DNA from: Escherichia coli
GTDB taxonomy: Bacteria; Pseudomonadota; Gammaproteobacteria; Enterobacterales; Enterobacteriaceae
Length of the DNA: 64,000 nt
Assembly: GCF_024223415.1 (NCBI RefSeq)
Contig: NZ_CP100500.1
Strand: one strand, 5' to 3'
Both the position numbers and the translations under genes were made by a program. Below, piece after piece: positions 8,049-53,644 of the stretch; within the stretch, counting starts at the first letter, position 1, and each line of letters starts with the position of its first letter. A model generated the notes under the pieces. It had not been told where the DNA came from, made no database searches, and saw only the letters and a program-made list of their open reading frames with translations.

Positions 8049-8837
8049 ATGCAAGTCGACCTGCTGGGTTCAGCGCAATCTGCGCACGCGTTACACCTTT
8101 TTCACCAACATTCCCCTCTTGTGCACTGCATGACCAATGATGTGGTGCAAACCTTTACCGCCAATACCTTGCTGGCGCTCGGTGCATCGCCAGCGATGGT
8201 TATCGAAACCGAAGAGGCCAGTCAGTTTGCGGCTATCGCCAGTGCCTTGTTGATTAACGTTGGCACACTGACGCAGCCACGCGCTCAGGCGATGCGTGCT
8301 GCCGTTGAGCAAGCAAAAAGCTCTCAAACACCCTGGACGCTTGATCCAGTAGCGGTGGGTGCGCTCGATTATCGCCGCCATTTTTGTCATGAACTTTTAT
8401 CTTTTAAACCGGCAGCGATACGTGGTAATGCTTCGGAAATCATGGCATTAGCTGGCATTGCTAATGGCGGACGGGGAGTGGATACCACTGACGCCGCAGC
8501 TAACGCGATACCCGCTGCACAAACACTGGCACGGGAAACTGGCGCAATCGTCGTGGTCACTGGCGAGATGGATTATGTTACCGATGGACATCGTATCATT
8601 GGTATTCACGGTGGTGATCCGTTAATGACCAAAGTGGTAGGAACTGGCTGTGCATTATCGGCGGTTGTCGCTGCCTGCTGTGCGTTACCAGGCGATACGC
8701 TGGAAAATGTCGCATCTGCCTGTCACTGGATGAAACAAGCCGGAGAACGCGCAGTCGCCAGAAGCGAGGGGCCAGGCAGTTTTGTTCCACATTTCCTTGA
8801 TGCGCTCTGGCAATTGACGCAGGAGGTGCAGGCATGA
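8049..8837 (+). CDS. thiM: hydroxyethylthiazole kinase
   Basis: 262 aa ORF, recognised ThiM sequence; overlaps thiD start. Confidence 0.95.
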
Positions 8838-9634
8838 AACGAATTAACGCTCTGACGATTGCCGGTACTGATCCGAGTGGTGGTGCGGGGATTCAGGCCG
8901 ATCTTAAAACCTTCTCGGCACTTGGCGCTTATGGTTGCTCAGTTATTACTGCACTGGTGGCGCAAAATACCCGTGGCGTACAGTCGGTGTATCGCATTGA
9001 GCCTGATTTTGTCGCCGCCCAGCTCGATTCGGTGTTCAGCGATGTGCGAATCGATACCACTAAAATCGGTATGCTGGCGGAAACCGATATTGTTGAAGCG
9101 GTGGCAGAACGGTTGCAACGTTATCAGATCCAAAACGTGGTACTCGACACCGTTATGCTGGCAAAAAGCGGCGACCCGCTGCTTTCACCTTCGGCGGTTG
9201 CTACGCTGCGCAGTCGATTATTGCCACAGGTTTCATTAATAACGCCAAACTTGCCCGAAGCTGCCGCCTTGCTCGACGCGCCACACGCGCGCACCGAACA
9301 GGAAATGCTGGAACAAGGGCGATCGCTGTTGGCGATGGGCTGTGGCGCAGTGCTAATGAAAGGTGGTCATCTGGATGATGAGCAAAGCCCGGACTGGCTG
9401 TTTACCCGCGAGGGTGAACAACGGTTTACCGCACCGCGCATTATGACCAAAAACACCCACGGCACTGGTTGTACACTCTCTGCGGCGTTGGCTGCACTAC
9501 GCCCGCGCCATACAAACTGGGCTGACACCGTACAGGAGGCAAAAAGCTGGCTTTCATCGGCGTTAGCCCAGGCCGACACGCTGGAAGTTGGTCACGGTAT
9601 TGGTCCGGTTCACCACTTCCACGCCTGGTGGTGA
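8834..9634 (+). CDS. thiD: hydroxymethylpyrimidine / phosphomethylpyrimidine kinase
   Basis: 266 aa ORF, recognised ThiD. Confidence 0.95.
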
Positions 9635-15841: not shown

Positions 15842-15990
15842 GCCTTATACGGACAACACCACCCCGTAGGACGGATAAGGCGTTTACGCTGCATCCGGCA
15901 ACCTATGCCTGATGCGACGCTGAAGCGTCTTATCATGCCTACATAGCACTGCCACGTATGTTTACACCGCATCCGGCATAAAAACACGCG
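15842..15990. repeat. REP/BIME cluster
   Basis: Multiple GCCGGATGCGGCG / CGCATCCGGC-type palindromic units. Confidence 0.7.
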
Positions 15991-24095: not shown

Positions 24096-24425
24096 GAATA
24101 TTTTTTGGTAAGCGTCAAATATGCGCTTTCTGGCTGTGCGTAGCCGGAACCTGTGGGAGCACGATGCCGATAAGTGAAAGGCATCGTGCTATGAAGGAGG
24201 ATTCTATCGATGTGGTCAATGGAAGACGGTTACCAGAGATAGGGCTTATGCATAAAAAAATAAGCCCGTGTAAGGGAGATTACACAGGCTAAGGAGGTGG
24301 TTCCTGGTACAGCTAGCATTTTATGGGTTATGTTTTTCAGCGAAACGGATGATAACCTTAATAAATGCAGCTGTATGTGATCGGTTTCTAAGAATTTTCC
24401 ATCCGGGAAAAATAATCGAAATTAA

Positions 24426-36000: not shown

Positions 36001-36192
36001 GCTTGCACCTGGGTAAAGCGTGACTACCTGAATGGTCGGATAGTCCACTTCCGGCAGCGCCGAAACGGGCAGGGCGCGATAACCGATAATCCCGGCGAGT
36101 AAGATCGCCACCATCAGCAGCGTGGTGGCGACAGGACGCATAATAAACAGGCGAGACGGGCCGCCTGTGCTGCTCGGGGGTAACACCTGCAT
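33070..36192 (-). CDS. mdtB: RND multidrug efflux pump subunit
   Basis: 1040 aa RND permease. Confidence 0.95.
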
Positions 36193-37439
36193 CAGGAGCG
36201 TGCTCCTTTTTTCGCGTATTCGCGGCTGGTGGCTTTCTCTTCTGGAGTGGTGGCGCTCTGGGCTTCCACCACTTCCACTTTCGCCCCTTCGGTCAGGCGA
36301 TCAATGCCGTCTGTCACCACGCGATCGCCCGCAGAAATACCTGCACGGATCACCACTTTCTGACTGTCCTGAATGCCCGGCGTCACCAGATGTTTGCTGA
36401 CCTTGTTTTCACTATTCAGCACCCAGACAAAATGGCCTTCATTGCCCATTTGCAGGGCGGCTGATGGGATCACTACGGCGTTTTGTTCGGTGTCGACTAA
36501 CATGCGCGCGTTAACAAACTGATTGGGAAACAGCGCATCATCCTGATTATTAAAGCGTGCTTTCACTTTAATCGTACCGGTTGTGGCATCGATTTGGTTA
36601 TCGAGACTTAACAGCGTGCCTTCACTTAATTTCTTCGAGTTGGTGCGATCCCAGGCTTCTACCACCAGCGGTTTTCCGGCTTTCTGCGCCTGCACTACGG
36701 TAGCGATATCGCTTTCCGGCAGGGTAAAGACTAAATCGATAGGATGCGTCTGGGTGATCACCACGATCCCGGTGGTATCACCACTGGAGATTTGGTTACC
36801 AACATCAACCTGCTTGAGACCAACGCGACCATCGACTGGTGCGGTAATCCGGCTCCAGTCGAGTTGCAGCTGCGCGCTGGCAACGCTTGCTTCATCAGCC
36901 TTAATGGTGCCTTCGGTTTCACTGACCAGCGCCTGTTGGGCATCCAGCTCCTGGCGGGAAACGAGATTGGTTTTTGCCAGTTGTTGATAACGCGCCAGGT
37001 CACGGCGGGCGTTGGCAAGCGTGGCTTTATCTTTTGCCAGTTGGCCCTGGGCTTGTGCTAATGCAACTTTGAACTGGCTGGGGTCAATTTCTGCCAGTAA
37101 ATCGCCTGCTTTGACCTGCTGGCCTTCCTGGAAATGTAACGCTATCAGTTGGCCGTCCACGCGGCTGCGCACCGTAACGGTATTAGCGGCGGTAATGGTG
37201 CCAAGCCCGGTGAGGTAACGCGGAACTGCCTGTTCTACGGCGGTCGCCGCCTGAACCGGGGCTAATGGGCCGGAACGCATACCACGGCGACCACCCGCTG
37301 GCGATTGCTGCGCTTGTTTCGTCGCCCCTGGGGCTGCACTCCGGGAGTCATTGCGGCCTTGCCAGAACCAGAATGCGGCGATGGCGGCGATAACCACCAC
37401 GATTACGATTACCCAACGGGATTTATAACTGCCTTTCAT
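36192..37439 (-). CDS. mdtA: RND efflux membrane fusion protein
   Basis: Start at [12 protein letters not shown] (ATG at 37439) giving 415 aa; track ORF is an upstream extension. Confidence 0.9.
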
Positions 37440-37669
37440 CGTTAAGAGTTTCTCTTCCTGAAACGTTTCGCGGAATGATACTAGTGTAGCCAGCCAATAA
37501 GGGAGAAAAATGGAGGAATTATGAAACACTATCGGGAATCGTCTGAATGGCGGGCACATTTGCGAGCACGCATCCAGTAATAACACAGGAAACTATTTTA
37601 TCTACGCGTTAGCGATAGACTGCATACAGGGCGAAAGGAGGTAAGCCGCAGATTTCAGCCGGATGCTGA

Positions 37670-37810
37670 AACGGGAAAGCCCCTCCCGAGGAAGGGGCCT
37701 TAAATAAGGAAAGGGTCATGATGAAGCTACTCATCATCGTGGTGCTCTTAGTGATTAGCTACCCAGCATACTAAGACTACCAGGGCGGGGGAAACCCCGC
37801 TCTACCCTCA
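37670..37810 (-). ncRNA. Sib-family antisense sRNA (antitoxin), copy 1, approximate bounds
   Basis: On minus strand: -35 TTGACA (rc of 37839-37844) and -10-like CATACT downstream of ibs stop; hairpin GCCCCTCCCGAGGAAGGGGC at 37679-37699 as terminator; bounds inferred. Confidence 0.45.
37718..37774 (+). CDS. Ibs-family type I toxin peptide (MMKLLIIVVLLVISYPAY)
   Basis: 18-codon hydrophobic ORF with AAGG RBS, below six-frame track length cutoff; resembles IbsA-E peptides. Confidence 0.7.
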   Translation: MMKLLIIVVLLVISYPAY

Positions 37811-37997
37811 CTCCTGAAAGTATGCCTTCACGATAAGATTGTCAATCCGCAGGATTTGCCGTCTGCGATCCTGCCAGCAAAAATTCTTTGCGAGACGTTA
37901 CGCAATAATCACACTGGAAACTATTTTATCTGCAAGTCAGCGATAGACTAAGTGCATGGCGAAAGGAGGTAAGCCGACGATTTCAGCGGGACGCTGA

Positions 37998-38138
37998 AAC
38001 GGGAAAGCCCCTCCCGAGGAAGGGGCCTTAAATAAGGAAAGGGTCATGATGAAGCTACTCATCATCGTGGTGCTCTTAGTCATAAGCTTCCCCGCTTACT
38101 AAGACTACCAGGGCGGGGGAAACCCCGCTCTACCCTCA
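37998..38138 (-). ncRNA. Sib-family antisense sRNA, copy 2, approximate bounds
   Basis: Same promoter and hairpin elements as copy 1 within repeat 2. Confidence 0.45.
38046..38102 (+). CDS. Ibs-family type I toxin peptide (MMKLLIIVVLLVISFPAY)
   Basis: Second repeat copy, 18-codon hydrophobic ORF. Confidence 0.7.
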   Translation: MMKLLIIVVLLVISFPAY

Positions 38139-38327
38139 CTCCTGAAAGTATGCCTTCACGATAAGATTGTCAATCCGCAGGCTTTGTAGTCTGCGATCCT
38201 GCCAGCAAATATTCTTTGCGAGTCGTTACGCAATAATCACAGAGGAAACTATTTTATTCACGCGTTAGCGATAGCCTGCATTCAGGGCGAAAGGAGGTAA
38301 GCCGATGATTTCAGCGGGACGCTGAAA

Positions 38328-38470
38328 CGGGAAAGCCTCTCCCGGAGAAGAGGGCTTTTAATAAGGAAAGGGTTATGATGAAGCACGTCATCATACTGGT
38401 GATACTCTTAGTGATTAGCTTCCAGGCTTACTAAGAACACCAGGGGGAGGGGGAAACCTCTCCCTAACCC
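38328..38470 (-). ncRNA. Sib-family antisense sRNA, copy 3, approximate bounds
   Basis: Divergent copy; hairpin AGCCTCTCCCGGAGAAGAGGGCTTT at about 38335-38358. Confidence 0.4.
38375..38434 (+). CDS. Ibs-family type I toxin peptide (MMKHVIILVILLVISFQAY)
   Basis: Third, more divergent repeat copy, 19-codon hydrophobic ORF. Confidence 0.7.
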   Translation: MMKHVIILVILLVISFQAY

Positions 38471-38654
38471 TCACTCCTGAAATTATGTCACTCCGCCCTT
38501 AGTGTCAATCGACGGCTCTCCGTTCTTGCGAGGCGAATAGCAAAATTTTCTGCGCCGCCGGGCCTAATTCTGAAAGTTTCTTCGTTTGCTCTTATTTCAT
38601 TATTGCAGTCGGTATGATACCGGACCTCAATAATTCTCTAAGAAAGGATTTCTT

Positions 38655-39314
38655 ATGAGCGAACAAATCACGTTTGCCACCAGCGATTTTGCCAGTAACC
38701 CGGAACCACGTTGCCCCTGCATTTTGCTGCTGGATGTTTCTAGCTCGATGAGCGGCAGACCCATTAATGAACTTAACGCCGGATTGGTTACCTTTCGCGA
38801 TGAGCTGCTTGCCGATTCGCTGGCCTTAAAAAGAGTGGAACTCGGTATTGTGACGTTCGGCCCGGTGCATGTGGAACAACCCTTTACCAGCGCCGCTAAC
38901 TTTTTCCCGCCCATCCTGTTTGCCCAGGGGGATACGCCAATGGGGGCCGCCATTACCAAAGCCCTGGATATGGTTGAAGAGAGGAAACGTGAGTACCGCG
39001 CAAATGGTATTTCGTATTATCGCCCGTGGATTTTCCTGATCACCGATGGCGCTCCAACCGATGAGTGGCAGGCTGCCGCCAACAAAGTGTTTCAGGGGGA
39101 AGAAGATAAGAAATTTGCCTTCTTTTCCATCGCTGTTCAGGGGGCGGATATGAAGACGCTGGCACAAATCAGCGTTCGTCAGCCTTTGCCTCTGCAAGGA
39201 TTACAATTCCGTGAACTGTTTAGCTGGTTATCCAGTTCGCTGCGTTCGGTTTCCCGCTCCACGCCGGGAACGGAAGTTGTGCTGGAAGCGCCAAAAGGCT
39301 GGACGTCAGTGTGA
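38655..39314 (+). CDS. yegL: von Willebrand factor A (vWA / TerY-like) domain protein
   Basis: 219 aa; MIDAS motif [11 protein letters not shown]; overlaps start of next gene. Confidence 0.85.
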
Positions 39315-40072
39315 GCTGGCGTCTGGTTTATGCATCCGCTGTTGGAACGTCGCACATTAGCGCTGATTTACCTTGTCAGGATGCCTGCCAGATGCAGGTT
39401 GCCTGGTTAAACGATCAGCAACCATTACTGGTGATGTTTCTTGCTGATGGTGCAGGCAGCGTCTCGCAGGGTGGCGAAGGCGCGATGCTCGCCGTCAATG
39501 AAGCGATGGCTTATATGTCGCAAAAAGTGCAGGGTGGGGAATTGGGGCTTAATGATATCCTCGCCACGGATATTGTGCTGACTATTCGTCAGCGACTTTT
39601 TGCCGAGGCGGAAGCCAAAGAATTAGCAGTTCGCGATTTTGCCTGCACGTTTCTGGGATTGATTTCATCGGCTAATGGCACCTTGATTATGCAGATTGGC
39701 GATGGCGGCGTGGTGGTGGATTTTGGTCACGGTCTGCAATTGCCGCTTACGCCGATGGTGGGTGAATATGACAATATGACGCACTTCATTACCGATGAAG
39801 ATGCCGTTTCCAGACTGGAAACTTTCACCAGCACTGAGCGTGTGCATAAAGTTGCAGCATTTACGGATGGTATCCAGCGACTGGCGTTAAATATGCTGGA
39901 TAATTCTCCTCATGTACCTTTCTTTACCCCGTTTTTCAATGGACTGGCGTCAGCAACGCAGGAACAACTCGATTTATTACCTGAATTGTTAAAGCAGTTT
40001 TTGTCCAGCCCGGCGGTAAACGAGCGTACGGATGATGATAAAACGTTGGCACTGGCGCTGTGGTTACCATGA
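39311..40072 (+). CDS. yegK: PP2C-family Ser/Thr protein phosphatase
   Basis: 253 aa; PP2C-like acidic metal-binding motifs ([14 protein letters not shown]); overlaps kinase start. Confidence 0.8.
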
Positions 40073-42009
40073 AACCCACTTTATATACTGCTACTGGTGA
40101 GTGCGTTACGCCAGGCCGTGAACTGGGCAAAGGCGGTGAAGGCGCGGTTTATGATATCAATGAGTTTGTCGATAGCGTCGCCAAGATTTATCACACGCCG
40201 CCACCCGCCTTAAAACAGGACAAACTTGCCTTTATGGCTGCGACAGCTGACGCGCAATTGTTGAATTATGTCGCCTGGCCGCAGGCAACGCTTCACGGTG
40301 GACGAGGCGGAAAAGTTATCGGTTTTATGATGCCAAAAGTTTCTGGTAAAGAACCGATTCATATGATCTATAGCCCGGCACATCGTCGTCAACGTTACCC
40401 TCATTGTGCGTGGGATTTTCTACTCTATGTTGCGCGCAATATTGCTTCATCTTTTGCTACGGTTCACGAGCACGGGCACGTCGTGGGTGACGTAAACCAG
40501 AACAGTTTTATGGTAGGTCGCGACAGCAAAGTGGTACTGATTGATAGCGACTCCTTTCAGATTAACGCCAATGGCACACTGCATTTATGCGAAGTCGGCG
40601 TGTCGCATTTTACGCCGCCAGAGCTACAAACCTTGTCGTCATTTGTCGGCTTTGAACGCACAGAAAATCACGATAATTTTGGCCTTGCGTTGCTGATTTT
40701 TCACGTCTTGTTTGGTGGCCGGCATCCTTATTCTGGTGTGCCGCTTATCTCTGATGCGGGTAATGCGCTGGAGACGGATATTACCCATTTCCGTTATGCC
40801 TACGCGTCAGATAATCAGCGACGTGGTTTAAAACCGCCGCCACGATCGATTCCGCTATCGATGTTACCGAGTGATGTTGAAGCCATGTTTCAGCAGGCAT
40901 TCACGGAAAGTGGCGTGGCAACCGGGCGTCCGACGGCTAAAGCGTGGGTAGCGGCACTTGATTCTCTGCGCCAACAGTTAAAGAAATGTCCCGTTTCGGC
41001 AATGCATGTTTATCCCGCTCATTTGACCGACTGCCCGTGGTGTGCGCTGGATAATCAAGGCGTTATCTATTTTATTGATCTCGGCGAAGAGGTCATTACC
41101 ACCGGCGGGGATTTTGTGCTGGCAAAAGTCTGGGCGATGGTGATGGCGTCAGTAGCACCGCCAGCATTGCAACTGCCATTACCCGATCATTTCCAACCGA
41201 CTGGCAGGCCGCTTCCTTTAGGCCTGTTACGGCGCGAATACATCATTCTGCTTGAGATCGCACTGTCAGCATTATCGCTGCTGCTTTGCGGCCTTCAGGC
41301 AGAACCGCGTTATATTATTTTGGTTCCTGTGCTGGCGGCTATCTGGATTATTGGCAGTCTGACAAGCAAAGCGTACAAAGCAGAAGTTCAGCAACGCCGT
41401 GAGGCATTTAATCGTGCGAAAATGGACTATGACCATTTAGTCCGCCAGATCCAGCAGGTAGGCGGCCTGGAAGGTTTTATCGCCAAACGGACGATGCTCG
41501 AAAAAATGAAGGACGAAATTCTCGGGTTACCGGAAGAAGAGAAACGCGCTCTGGCAGCACTTCATGACACTGCAAGGGAACGGCAGAAGCAGAAGTTTCT
41601 GGAGGGATTTTTTATTGATGTTGCCTCTATTCCCGGCGTTGGCCCTGCGCGTAAAGCGGCGTTACGGTCTTTTGGTATTGAAACAGCCGCAGATGTTACC
41701 CGTCGTGGCGTTAAGCAAGTGAAAGGGTTTGGCGACCATCTGACCCAGGCGGTTATCGACTGGAAAGCGAGCTGTGAACGCCGTTTTGTGTTCAGGCCGA
41801 ATGAAGCGATAACGCCAGCAGACAGACAAGCGGTAATGGCGAAAATGACCGCCAAACGACATCGGCTGGAATCGACGTTGACTGTCGGCGCGACAGAGTT
41901 GCAGCGATTCCGCCTTCATGCTCCAGCACGGACCATGCCGTTGATGGAACCTTTACGTCAGGCGGCAGAAAAACTGGCTCAGGCGCAGGCAGATTTAAGC
42001 CGCTGCTGA
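40060..42009 (+). CDS. yegI: Ser/Thr protein kinase-like protein with C-terminal helix-hairpin-helix region
   Basis: 649 aa; glycine-rich loop GKGGEGAVY, VAKIY lysine, HGHVVGDVNQNS catalytic loop, predicted TM segments, HhH-like GxG repeats near C-terminus. Confidence 0.85.
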   Translation: MVTMKPTLYTATGECVTPGRELGKGGEGAVYDINEFVDSVAKIYHTPPPALKQDKLAFMAATADAQLLNYVAWPQATLHGGRGGKVIGFMMPKVSGKEPIHMIYSPAHRRQRYPHCAWDFLLYVARNIASSFATVHEHGHVVGDVNQNSFMVGRDSKVVLIDSDSFQINANGTLHLCEVGVSHFTPPELQTLSSFVGFERTENHDNFGLALLIFHVLFGGRHPYSGVPLISDAGNALETDITHFRYAYASDNQRRGLKPPPRSIPLSMLPSDVEAMFQQAFTESGVATGRPTAKAWVAALDSLRQQLKKCPVSAMHVYPAHLTDCPWCALDNQGVIYFIDLGEEVITTGGDFVLAKVWAMVMASVAPPALQLPLPDHFQPTGRPLPLGLLRREYIILLEIALSALSLLLCGLQAEPRYIILVPVLAAIWIIGSLTSKAYKAEVQQRREAFNRAKMDYDHLVRQIQQVGGLEGFIAKRTMLEKMKDEILGLPEEEKRALAALHDTARERQKQKFLEGFFIDVASIPGVGPARKAALRSFGIETAADVTRRGVKQVKGFGDHLTQAVIDWKASCERRFVFRPNEAITPADRQAVMAKMTAKRHRLESTLTVGATELQRFRLHAPARTMPLMEPLRQAAEKLAQAQADLSRC

Positions 42010-53164: not shown

Positions 53165-53632
53165 AGTAAGTACAAAACCTATTCGTTGTATGACAAATGT
53201 CACAATTCGATCATGGATAAATCGGGGCAAAAATGCAATGTTGCAGCACTATTTATCTCATATTATTTGAGGGTAATAACCTCACATTATCCCTGAATTA
53301 AAAGTGGTAATAATAAAACATTATTTAAGAAATATCGCATGTGGAGGCGCAATATTAAATATTGTCAACCTAAAGAAACTCCTAAAAACCATATTGAATG
53401 ACACTTAATATAATTCTTAAAAATAGCCAATTGCCGAATTGTTACCTTGCCTGCTATTCCGTTAGCTGTAACACTTCCTCCTGCATTATTGGAGAGCCAA
53501 TATTCAATTACCATAATGTCACCTTATATTCGGAAGTTAATTTCCGCAATAACCCTTTCTCATCAACGATTGTATGCAGAGAGGGTTTGAAAAATTAAGC
53601 TAAATCAGTGTATTGGTAGCTAAAAAGCCAGG

Positions 53633-53644
53633 GGCGGTAGCGTG
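53633..53644 (+). promoter_or_regulatory. ops element (GGCGGTAGCGTG) / JUMPstart, RfaH recruitment site in cps leader
   Basis: Exact ops consensus in long AT-rich leader about 180 bp upstream of wza. Confidence 0.75.

Follow-up and report, generated by a model that had tools for sequence, protein, structure and literature searches.

The closest described system is the chromosomal sibA/sibB locus of Escherichia coli K-12 MG1655, in which two units, sibB/ibsB and sibA/ibsA, occupy the gap between yegL and mdtA and each sib gene wholly covers its ibs partner. How Ibs/Sib pairs work has been described (PMC2943612, PMC4147584, PMC8309996); the same three papers cite Fozo 2008 for the toxicity of overproduced K-12 Ibs peptides and its relief by the cognate Sib RNA. 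SibC carries two recognition domains, TRD1 at +46..+68, opposite the ORF, and TRD2 at +99..+115, opposite the translation-initiation region (Han et al., PMC2943612). Either domain alone is enough for repression, and repression and specificity are lost only when both are changed; changing 3 nt of TRD1 contributes to a switch in specificity, and the K-12 Sib RNAs repress only their cognate targets, ibsA excepted (PMC2943612). Expression of ibsA in an ibsA/sibA deletion strain had no effect on survival (Han et al., PMC2943612), and not every unit therefore need be a strong toxin. The number of Ibs genes was given in 2010 as five in K-12, six to seven in EHEC, and seven in S. boydii, S. sonnei, and E. 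fergusonii, the duplications being described as evolutionarily stable (PMC2887945).

For toxicity, repression, and the TRD rules, we rely by analogy on this literature on the K-12 paralogs; repeat structure, ORFs, Sib family match and fold, orthology to K-12, and copy-number frequencies come from the sequences analyzed here. Applied to the locus considered here, the family model would have an abundant Sib RNA of ~136 to 144 nt made constitutively from the minus strand, using a sigma-70 promoter, a G start, and an intrinsic terminator hairpin. This RNA would be fully antisense to a plus-strand ibs mRNA of ~155 to 160 nt, encoding a hydrophobic peptide of 18 to 19 residues that is expected to depolarize the inner membrane when made. 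Pairing would begin at two independent domains, of which TRD1 faces the 3' half of the ORF and TRD2 the Shine-Dalgarno sequence and start, and would then spread, blocking translation and exposing the duplex to cleavage by RNase III.

The window analyzed here is a stretch of 64,000 nucleotides of E. coli DNA (RefSeq assembly GCF_024223415.1, contig NZ_CP100500.1). We conclude, with a probability of roughly 95%, that its region 37578-38562 represents the chromosomal sibA/sibB (ibsA/ibsB) type I toxin-antitoxin locus in a three-unit allelic form. Tandem Repeats Finder returned a sole array, at 37578-38487 (period 328, 2.8 copies, 88% matches, score 1405), and the start codons of the ibs ORFs, on which we anchored the unit boundaries, are spaced 328 and 329 bp apart. 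The array occupies the mdtA-yegL intergenic region, matching the position of the conserved chromosomal sibA/sibB locus, and is laid out as follows.

36192-37439, minus strand: mdtA, flanking gene.
37578-38562, no strand assigned: whole tandem array of three head-to-tail ibs/sib units (328 + 328 + 329 bp), from Tandem Repeats Finder and unit alignment.
37578-37905, no strand assigned: unit 1, Y15 type, extra relative to K-12; 92.4% identity to unit 2 and 94.5% to the K-12 sibB unit.
37906-38233, no strand assigned: unit 2, ortholog of the K-12 sibB/ibsB unit; 97.0% identity, identical peptide (WP_001386899.1).
38234-38562, no strand assigned: unit 3, ortholog of the K-12 sibA/ibsA unit; 99.1% identity, identical peptide (WP_010723109.1).
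38655-39314, plus strand: yegL, flanking gene.

Units 1 and 2 are separated by 25 substitutions and no indels over 328 bp, a divergence of 7.6%, and unit 3 is ~71 to 73% identical to both of them (unit 1 versus unit 3, ~73%). The first-pass annotation, made from the letters of the window, had proposed three tandem repeats of ~328 bp between mdtA and yegL, which the array and the spacing of the ibs genes bear out, and had given two copies for K-12, in agreement with the K-12 record, where sibA, ibsA, sibB, and ibsB are all annotated in the gap. Its description of copies 1 and 2 as nearly identical was overstated: identity is 92.4% per unit and 131 of 136 positions over the Sib transcript, and one residue differs in the peptide.

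Each unit contains a short hydrophobic ORF which, together with its Shine-Dalgarno sequence, lies wholly inside the Sib RNA of the opposite strand. The ORFs and the predicted starts of their mRNAs are as follows.

37718-37774, plus strand: ibs ORF 1, 18 amino acids, MMKLLIIVVLLVISYPAY, by translation; annotated by PGAP as "type I toxin-antitoxin system Ibs family toxin".
38046-38102, plus strand: ibs ORF 2, IbsB, 18 amino acids, MMKLLIIVVLLVISFPAY, by translation; identical to K-12 IbsB.
38375-38434, plus strand: ibs ORF 3, IbsA, 19 amino acids, MMKHVIILVILLVISFQAY, by translation; identical to K-12 IbsA.
37655, plus strand: predicted start of ibs-1 mRNA, from alignment to the mapped +1 of ibsC; weak promoter consensus.
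Near 37983 and 38311, plus strand: predicted starts of ibs-2 and ibs-3 mRNAs, from alignment to ibsC.

These translations match exactly the three Ibs-like peptides of 18 to 19 codons reported in the first pass. The peptides were assigned through their identity to RefSeq proteins, their 18 to 19 residues being fewer than the 20-residue minimum of the NCBIfam and Pfam profile libraries. The product of ORF 1 differs from IbsB only by F15Y and is RefSeq WP_001386901.1, an "Ibs family toxin" annotated across many genomes. The K-12 record calls IbsB only a "putative toxic peptide". ORF 1 and ORF 2 show five coding differences, four of them synonymous (V12, I13, P16, and A17) and one conservative (Y15F); this pattern is compatible with purifying selection on both peptides, five sites being too few to demonstrate it. 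The 5' end of ibsC has been mapped to 18 nt outside the 3' end of SibC (PMC2943612), and the start sites given above are transferred from ibsC, the promoters of all three ibs genes matching the sigma-70 consensus poorly.

On the minus strand, the Rfam family RF00113 (SIB_RNA) has three full-length matches in the window (model positions 1 to 147). The gathering score of the family is 56; the matches reach 141.6, 142.0, and 149.5 bits and have E values of ~1e-30. The ends of the RNAs were transferred from the K-12 annotation (NC_000913.3: sibA, 144 nt; sibB, 136 nt), and the first base thus placed is a G in all three, which agrees with the +1 G of sibA and sibB (PMC12956327). The RNAs and their signals are listed here.

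37674-37809, minus strand: Sib-1 antisense RNA, 136 nt, +1 G at 37809; 141.6 bits; fold of -59.6 kcal/mol, z -3.9.
38002-38137, minus strand: Sib-2 (SibB) antisense RNA, 136 nt; 142.0 bits; fold z -4.4.
38329-38472, minus strand: Sib-3 (SibA) antisense RNA, 144 nt; 149.5 bits; fold z -4.4.
37840-37845, minus strand: Sib-1 promoter, -35 box TTGACA, with -10 box TACTTT at 37817-37822 and a 17-nt spacer; from the sequence and Rfam model positions 1-6 and 24-29.
38168-38173, minus strand: Sib-2 promoter, -35 box TTGACA; from the sequence and the Rfam model.
38503-38508, minus strand: Sib-3 promoter, -35 box TTGACA, with -10 box TAATTT at 38480-38485; from the sequence and the Rfam model.
37676-37701, minus strand: Sib-1 terminator hairpin (Sib +109..+134), from the fold; equivalents in units 2 and 3.

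Every unit carries a perfect TTGACA box 36 nt upstream of the +1, followed by a 17-nt spacer and a weak -10 box (TACTTT or TAATTT). The three RNAs share a common fold, with a closing stem, three hairpins, an unpaired anti-Shine-Dalgarno stretch, and the hairpin of the terminator (minimum free energies of -55 to -62 kcal/mol, z scores of -3.9 to -4.4), and Sib-3 is identical to K-12 SibA in the alignment. A generic scan for sigma-70 promoters and terminators scored none of the Sib promoters and saw the hairpin of the Sib-3 terminator on the wrong strand only. The promoters were absent from that scan because their -10 boxes fall below its threshold, and since it had missed them, we relied on the Rfam alignment, the K-12 annotation, and the folds to position the promoters and terminators. 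Of the promoter and terminator signals claimed for the Sib RNAs in the first pass, the -35 boxes and the terminator hairpins can be made out in the sequence and the folds, and its identification of the repeats as an ibs/sib type I toxin-antitoxin system is upheld by the RF00113 matches, the ORFs, and the position between mdtA and yegL. No observation speaks against this family assignment.

The presence of two similar antitoxins side by side raises the question of cross-talk between them. To find the recognition domains in the window, we aligned its Sib RNAs with SibC and confirmed the numbering at G49CU51 and C107UCCUUC113 (PMC2943612).

37746-37768, minus strand: TRD1 equivalent of Sib-1, Sib +42..+64 (aligned with SibC +46..+68), by alignment.
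38074-38096, minus strand: TRD1 equivalent of Sib-2, by alignment.
37700-37718, minus strand: TRD2 equivalent of Sib-1, Sib +92..+110, in the anti-Shine-Dalgarno and translation-initiation region; identical in Sib-2 at 38028-38046.

As the pairs are cis-encoded, TRD1 and TRD2 are by construction perfectly complementary to the cognate ibs mRNA. The differences between Sib-1 and Sib-2 lie at +42, +45, +49, +54, and +57, and all five fall within the 23-nt TRD1 equivalent, which would happen with a probability of 9e-5 if they were scattered at random over the 136 nt. A non-cognate TRD1 duplex has an energy of -21 or -24 kcal/mol, compared with -41 or -42 kcal/mol for the cognate ones, so that about half is kept. 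One could thus argue that Sib-1 and Sib-2 are fully orthogonal, the divergence of TRD1 stopping any cross-talk and making the array three separate modules with no partly redundant pair among them; the published specificity switch through three TRD1 nucleotides and the restriction of K-12 Sib RNAs to cognate targets other than ibsA speak in the same direction. However, the two RNAs are identical over +1..+41 and +58..+136, TRD2 included, and under the published rules repression is lost only when both domains have changed, which makes full orthogonality unlikely. Since TRD2 is identical and either domain suffices by those rules, we predict instead that Sib-1 and Sib-2 discriminate at TRD1 yet cross-repress through TRD2, each acting on the target of the other. 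The first-pass annotation was right to raise cross-talk as a legitimate question; the published TRD1/TRD2 rules largely answer it (PMC2943612). Among 13 sibB-type units from eight strains, variation in the transcript clusters in the TRD1 region and at +80..+83 (ibs codons 4 and 5), with one further polymorphic site at +110, in TRD2.

How common such an array is can be read from complete E. coli genomes. The whole haplotype of 1.2 to 1.3 kb is present at an identity of at least 99% in 1,003 to 1,006 of the 5,422 matching records. Copy-number frequencies were obtained from two systematic samples taken down the match ranking (100 genomes), with ambiguous rows settled by fetching the loci.

Sample of 40 genomes: three units in 18, two in 16, four in 3, five in 1, one in 1, and none in 1.
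Sample of 60 genomes: three units in 24, two in 25, four or more (not split) in 7, one in 3, and none in 1.

Pooled over the 100 genomes, ~42% have three units, ~41% two, ~11% four or more, and ~4% one. Having three copies in most E. coli was the observation that the first-pass annotation had named as counting against its own reading, and with three or more units in ~53% of the sampled genomes, that reading is about half refuted. Nor is a third copy an unusual feature, three units being as frequent as two, the haplotype occurring in ~1,000 records, and its genes being annotated by PGAP.

The units are also reshuffled in type between strains, in arrays of one to five. A Y15-type unit is present in O157:H7, O145:H28, F138, MS20657, ST131 MNCRE44, and JNU. 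In JNU, the Y15 peptide is the only ibs product at the locus; in ST131 it occupies the yegL-proximal position, the site of ibsA in K-12; ST131 and MS20657 have two sibB-type peptides without IbsA; and E67 has five units. Among the matches listed for a 16-base pattern searched against genome contigs, a single mdtA-adjacent unit occurs in E. albertii, several Citrobacter, and Kluyvera, and Pseudocitrobacter has two units at mdtA. E. fergusonii, E. marmotae, and Salmonella were absent among the matches listed in this 16-base outgroup scan, most of which are chance matches in unrelated phyla. Because units flank mdtA in these other lineages, the mdtA-adjacent site is older than the genus. Taken with the divergence of the units, the haplotype counts, the range of one to five units, and the reshuffled types, it follows that the locus is an old, dynamic tandem array, of which the two units of K-12 are merely one state. 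Unit 1 is an old sibB-type paralog (Y15), missing from K-12 and kept in many lineages, and the copy-number polymorphism of one to five units presumably arises from unequal recombination between units.

A more ambitious proposal would extend this picture. If the sibB-type pair is partly cross-reactive, with either Sib RNA silencing both toxins, then the polymorphism of one to five units with reshuffled TRD1 alleles might reflect selection on antitoxin specificity or redundancy rather than neutral unequal crossing-over. We consider this proposal, taken as a whole, decidedly doubtful; if it were true, the cross-reactive pair would be a natural test bed for the insulation of cis-antisense paralogs.

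A reading of unit 1 as a decaying, silent relic, persisting because little time has passed or because it is converted by unit 2, is very improbable. It could appeal to the weak consensus of the ibs promoter and to the free variation in copy number from one to five, from which individual units would seem dispensable. Yet unit 1 looks intact, with its ORF, Shine-Dalgarno sequence, TTGACA -35 box, and terminator, and it scores as high as unit 2 against the Rfam model. Of the five coding differences, four are synonymous, the 136-nt Sib-1 region has a best match of at least 99% identity in 1,987 of 5,353 records, and the Y15 peptide stands as the sole ibs product in JNU and in the place of IbsA in ST131, all of which argue against decay. 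The Y15 peptide is predicted to be toxic, and unit 1 to be expressed.

Hardly tenable is the origin proposed in the first pass, a recent duplication of copies 1 and 2 in this strain or a narrow lineage from a K-12-like two-copy state: K-12 does have two units, units 1 and 2 (92.4%) are far closer to each other than either is to unit 3, and outgroup genera mostly have one unit beside mdtA, so that a duplication occurred at some point, but the 25 substitutions in 328 bp exceed the difference between lineages in orthologous units (those of O157:H7, O145:H28, and F138 are 95 to 97% identical to the units of the window), Y15-type units are found in those lineages and in ST131 MNCRE44, MS20657, and JNU, Nissle 1917 (98.5%) and UTI89 (97.1%) have closer matches to Sib-1 than K-12-like strains, whose best match (95.6%) is sibB, and the exact haplotype and the three-unit state are as widespread as described above. 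As the single sibB-type body of K-12 matches unit 2 and the Y15 type is missing there, a loss in K-12 fits as well as a gain elsewhere. We also considered whether the K-12 sibB unit, in which the first ~45 bp resemble unit 1 and the remainder unit 2, is a recombinant of the two that proves a deletion. This candidate was rejected; the pattern gives no direction of events, because those ~45 bp are the mdtA-flank version common to every first unit.

The locus is thus already known: it is a textbook type I toxin-antitoxin system, and the window carries one of the two most frequent allelic states. The three-unit form is annotated in thousands of RefSeq genomes and the strain-variable number of Ibs genes was published in 2010 (PMC2887945), so that our analysis has little import beyond annotation hygiene. 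The two-unit state of K-12 is not the norm of the species, and the K-12 names sibA and sibB leave the extra unit uncovered. The natural pair of Sib-1 and Sib-2, differing in TRD1 only, offers a clean test of the rule that either domain suffices.

Among other named systems, ldr/rdl and zorO-orzO/zorP-orzP likewise combine toxins that are small and hydrophobic with RNA antitoxins, the copies lying together in a single intergenic region and their number varying between strains (PMC2887945). Their sequences are unrelated to ibs/sib. Orz and Rdl act by pairing to the 5' untranslated region of the toxin mRNA and do not span the whole ORF. The sibC/ibsC pair, from which the mechanism was transferred, shares family and fold with the units of the window, and its TRD1 and TRD2 align cleanly with theirs; in contrast to them, it is a single copy at the fau-serA locus, with a sequence diverged throughout. 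In addition, sibC begins with an A and bears an NAD cap, features that sibA and sibB lack (PMC12956327).

Closer still are the alleles at the same locus in other strains. Over 1,221 bp, Combat11I9 shows 100% identity to the window, and PGAP annotates each of its three ibs genes; O45:H2 FWSEC0003 carries a three-unit allele as well. O157:H7 FRIK2533 matches the window in its three-unit layout; O157:H7 encodes MMKILIIVVLLVISYPAY and MMKWIIIVVLLVISFPAY as its first two peptides, and there the TRD2 position +110 is a further site that distinguishes unit 1 from unit 2. At this position of the Sib RNA, the window has a U and K-12 SibB an A. With the sibA/ibsA and sibB/ibsB units of K-12, known as SIB or QUAD repeats, the array of the window shares its locus, flanking genes, Sib architecture, and +1 G, and it is set apart from them by an additional unit of the sibB type at its mdtA end, with Y15 in place of F15 in the peptide and five TRD1 changes in the RNA.

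Within the segment of the Sib RNA that corresponds to the second target-recognition domain (TRD2), a single site varies, Sib +110 (window 37700 in the first sibB-type unit and 38028 in the second). Each of the window's two sibB-type units carries U there, whereas K-12 SibB and the O157:H7 first unit have A; the TRD2 identity of the adjacent units is therefore particular to the haplotype of the window.

At the same mdtA-yegL locus, strain E67 (L133, NZ_CP121155.1, 687-2059) carries five tandem ibs units, two of which encode an identical peptide (WP_100792650.1), making this the largest array seen among the E. coli genomes of our two samples (n=40 and n=60). In two further strains with three units, the array edge nearest mdtA is disrupted:

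L131 (NZ_CP024056.1, strain SMN197SH3), 1-1200: interrupted array edge, equivalent to window ~37440-37700
L132 (NZ_CP081711.1, strain AH21), 1-1200: interrupted array edge, equivalent to window ~37440-37700

In these loci, similarity to the window begins only at query position ~260. One of the pair has a frameshifted gene for the type III secretion effector EspJ on an element at the edge, and the other has IS150 directly upstream of the first ibs. The mdtA-proximal edge may be an insertion hot spot.

Among the matches listed, sib/ibs units also adjoin mdtA outside E. coli: Escherichia albertii, Citrobacter, and Kluyvera carry a single unit each, and Pseudocitrobacter has a pair. These loci include the following:

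L016 (E. albertii NBRC 107761), ~1494-1813: sib/ibs unit
L085 (Pseudocitrobacter faecalis), ~8717-9166: sib/ibs units
L021, L030, L064, L068, L099, and L128 (Citrobacter): sib/ibs units

Since no yegL homolog was detected at E < 1e-20 across all the sib/ibs loci fetched outside E. coli, the association with mdtA may predate that with yegL.

Elsewhere in the window, three further Rfam matches were found:

24258-24343, minus strand: CyaR/RyeE small RNA (100.7 bits)
15869-15939, plus strand: naRNA4 (64.5 bits, slightly over the gathering score of 59.5)
53606-53644, plus strand: JUMPstart element

The annotation of strain Combat11I9 suggests that the operon downstream of the JUMPstart element is the wza colanic acid operon. 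Two genes concern the order beyond the array:

39311-40072: pphC, same strand as yegI
40060-42009: yegI, same strand as pphC

The remaining neighborhood matches a K-12-like gene order. In both the window and Combat11I9, pphC overlaps the start of yegI on one strand. In K-12, pphC is followed by yegJ on the opposite strand, whereas here it runs into yegI, and the window appears to lack yegJ at the equivalent position.
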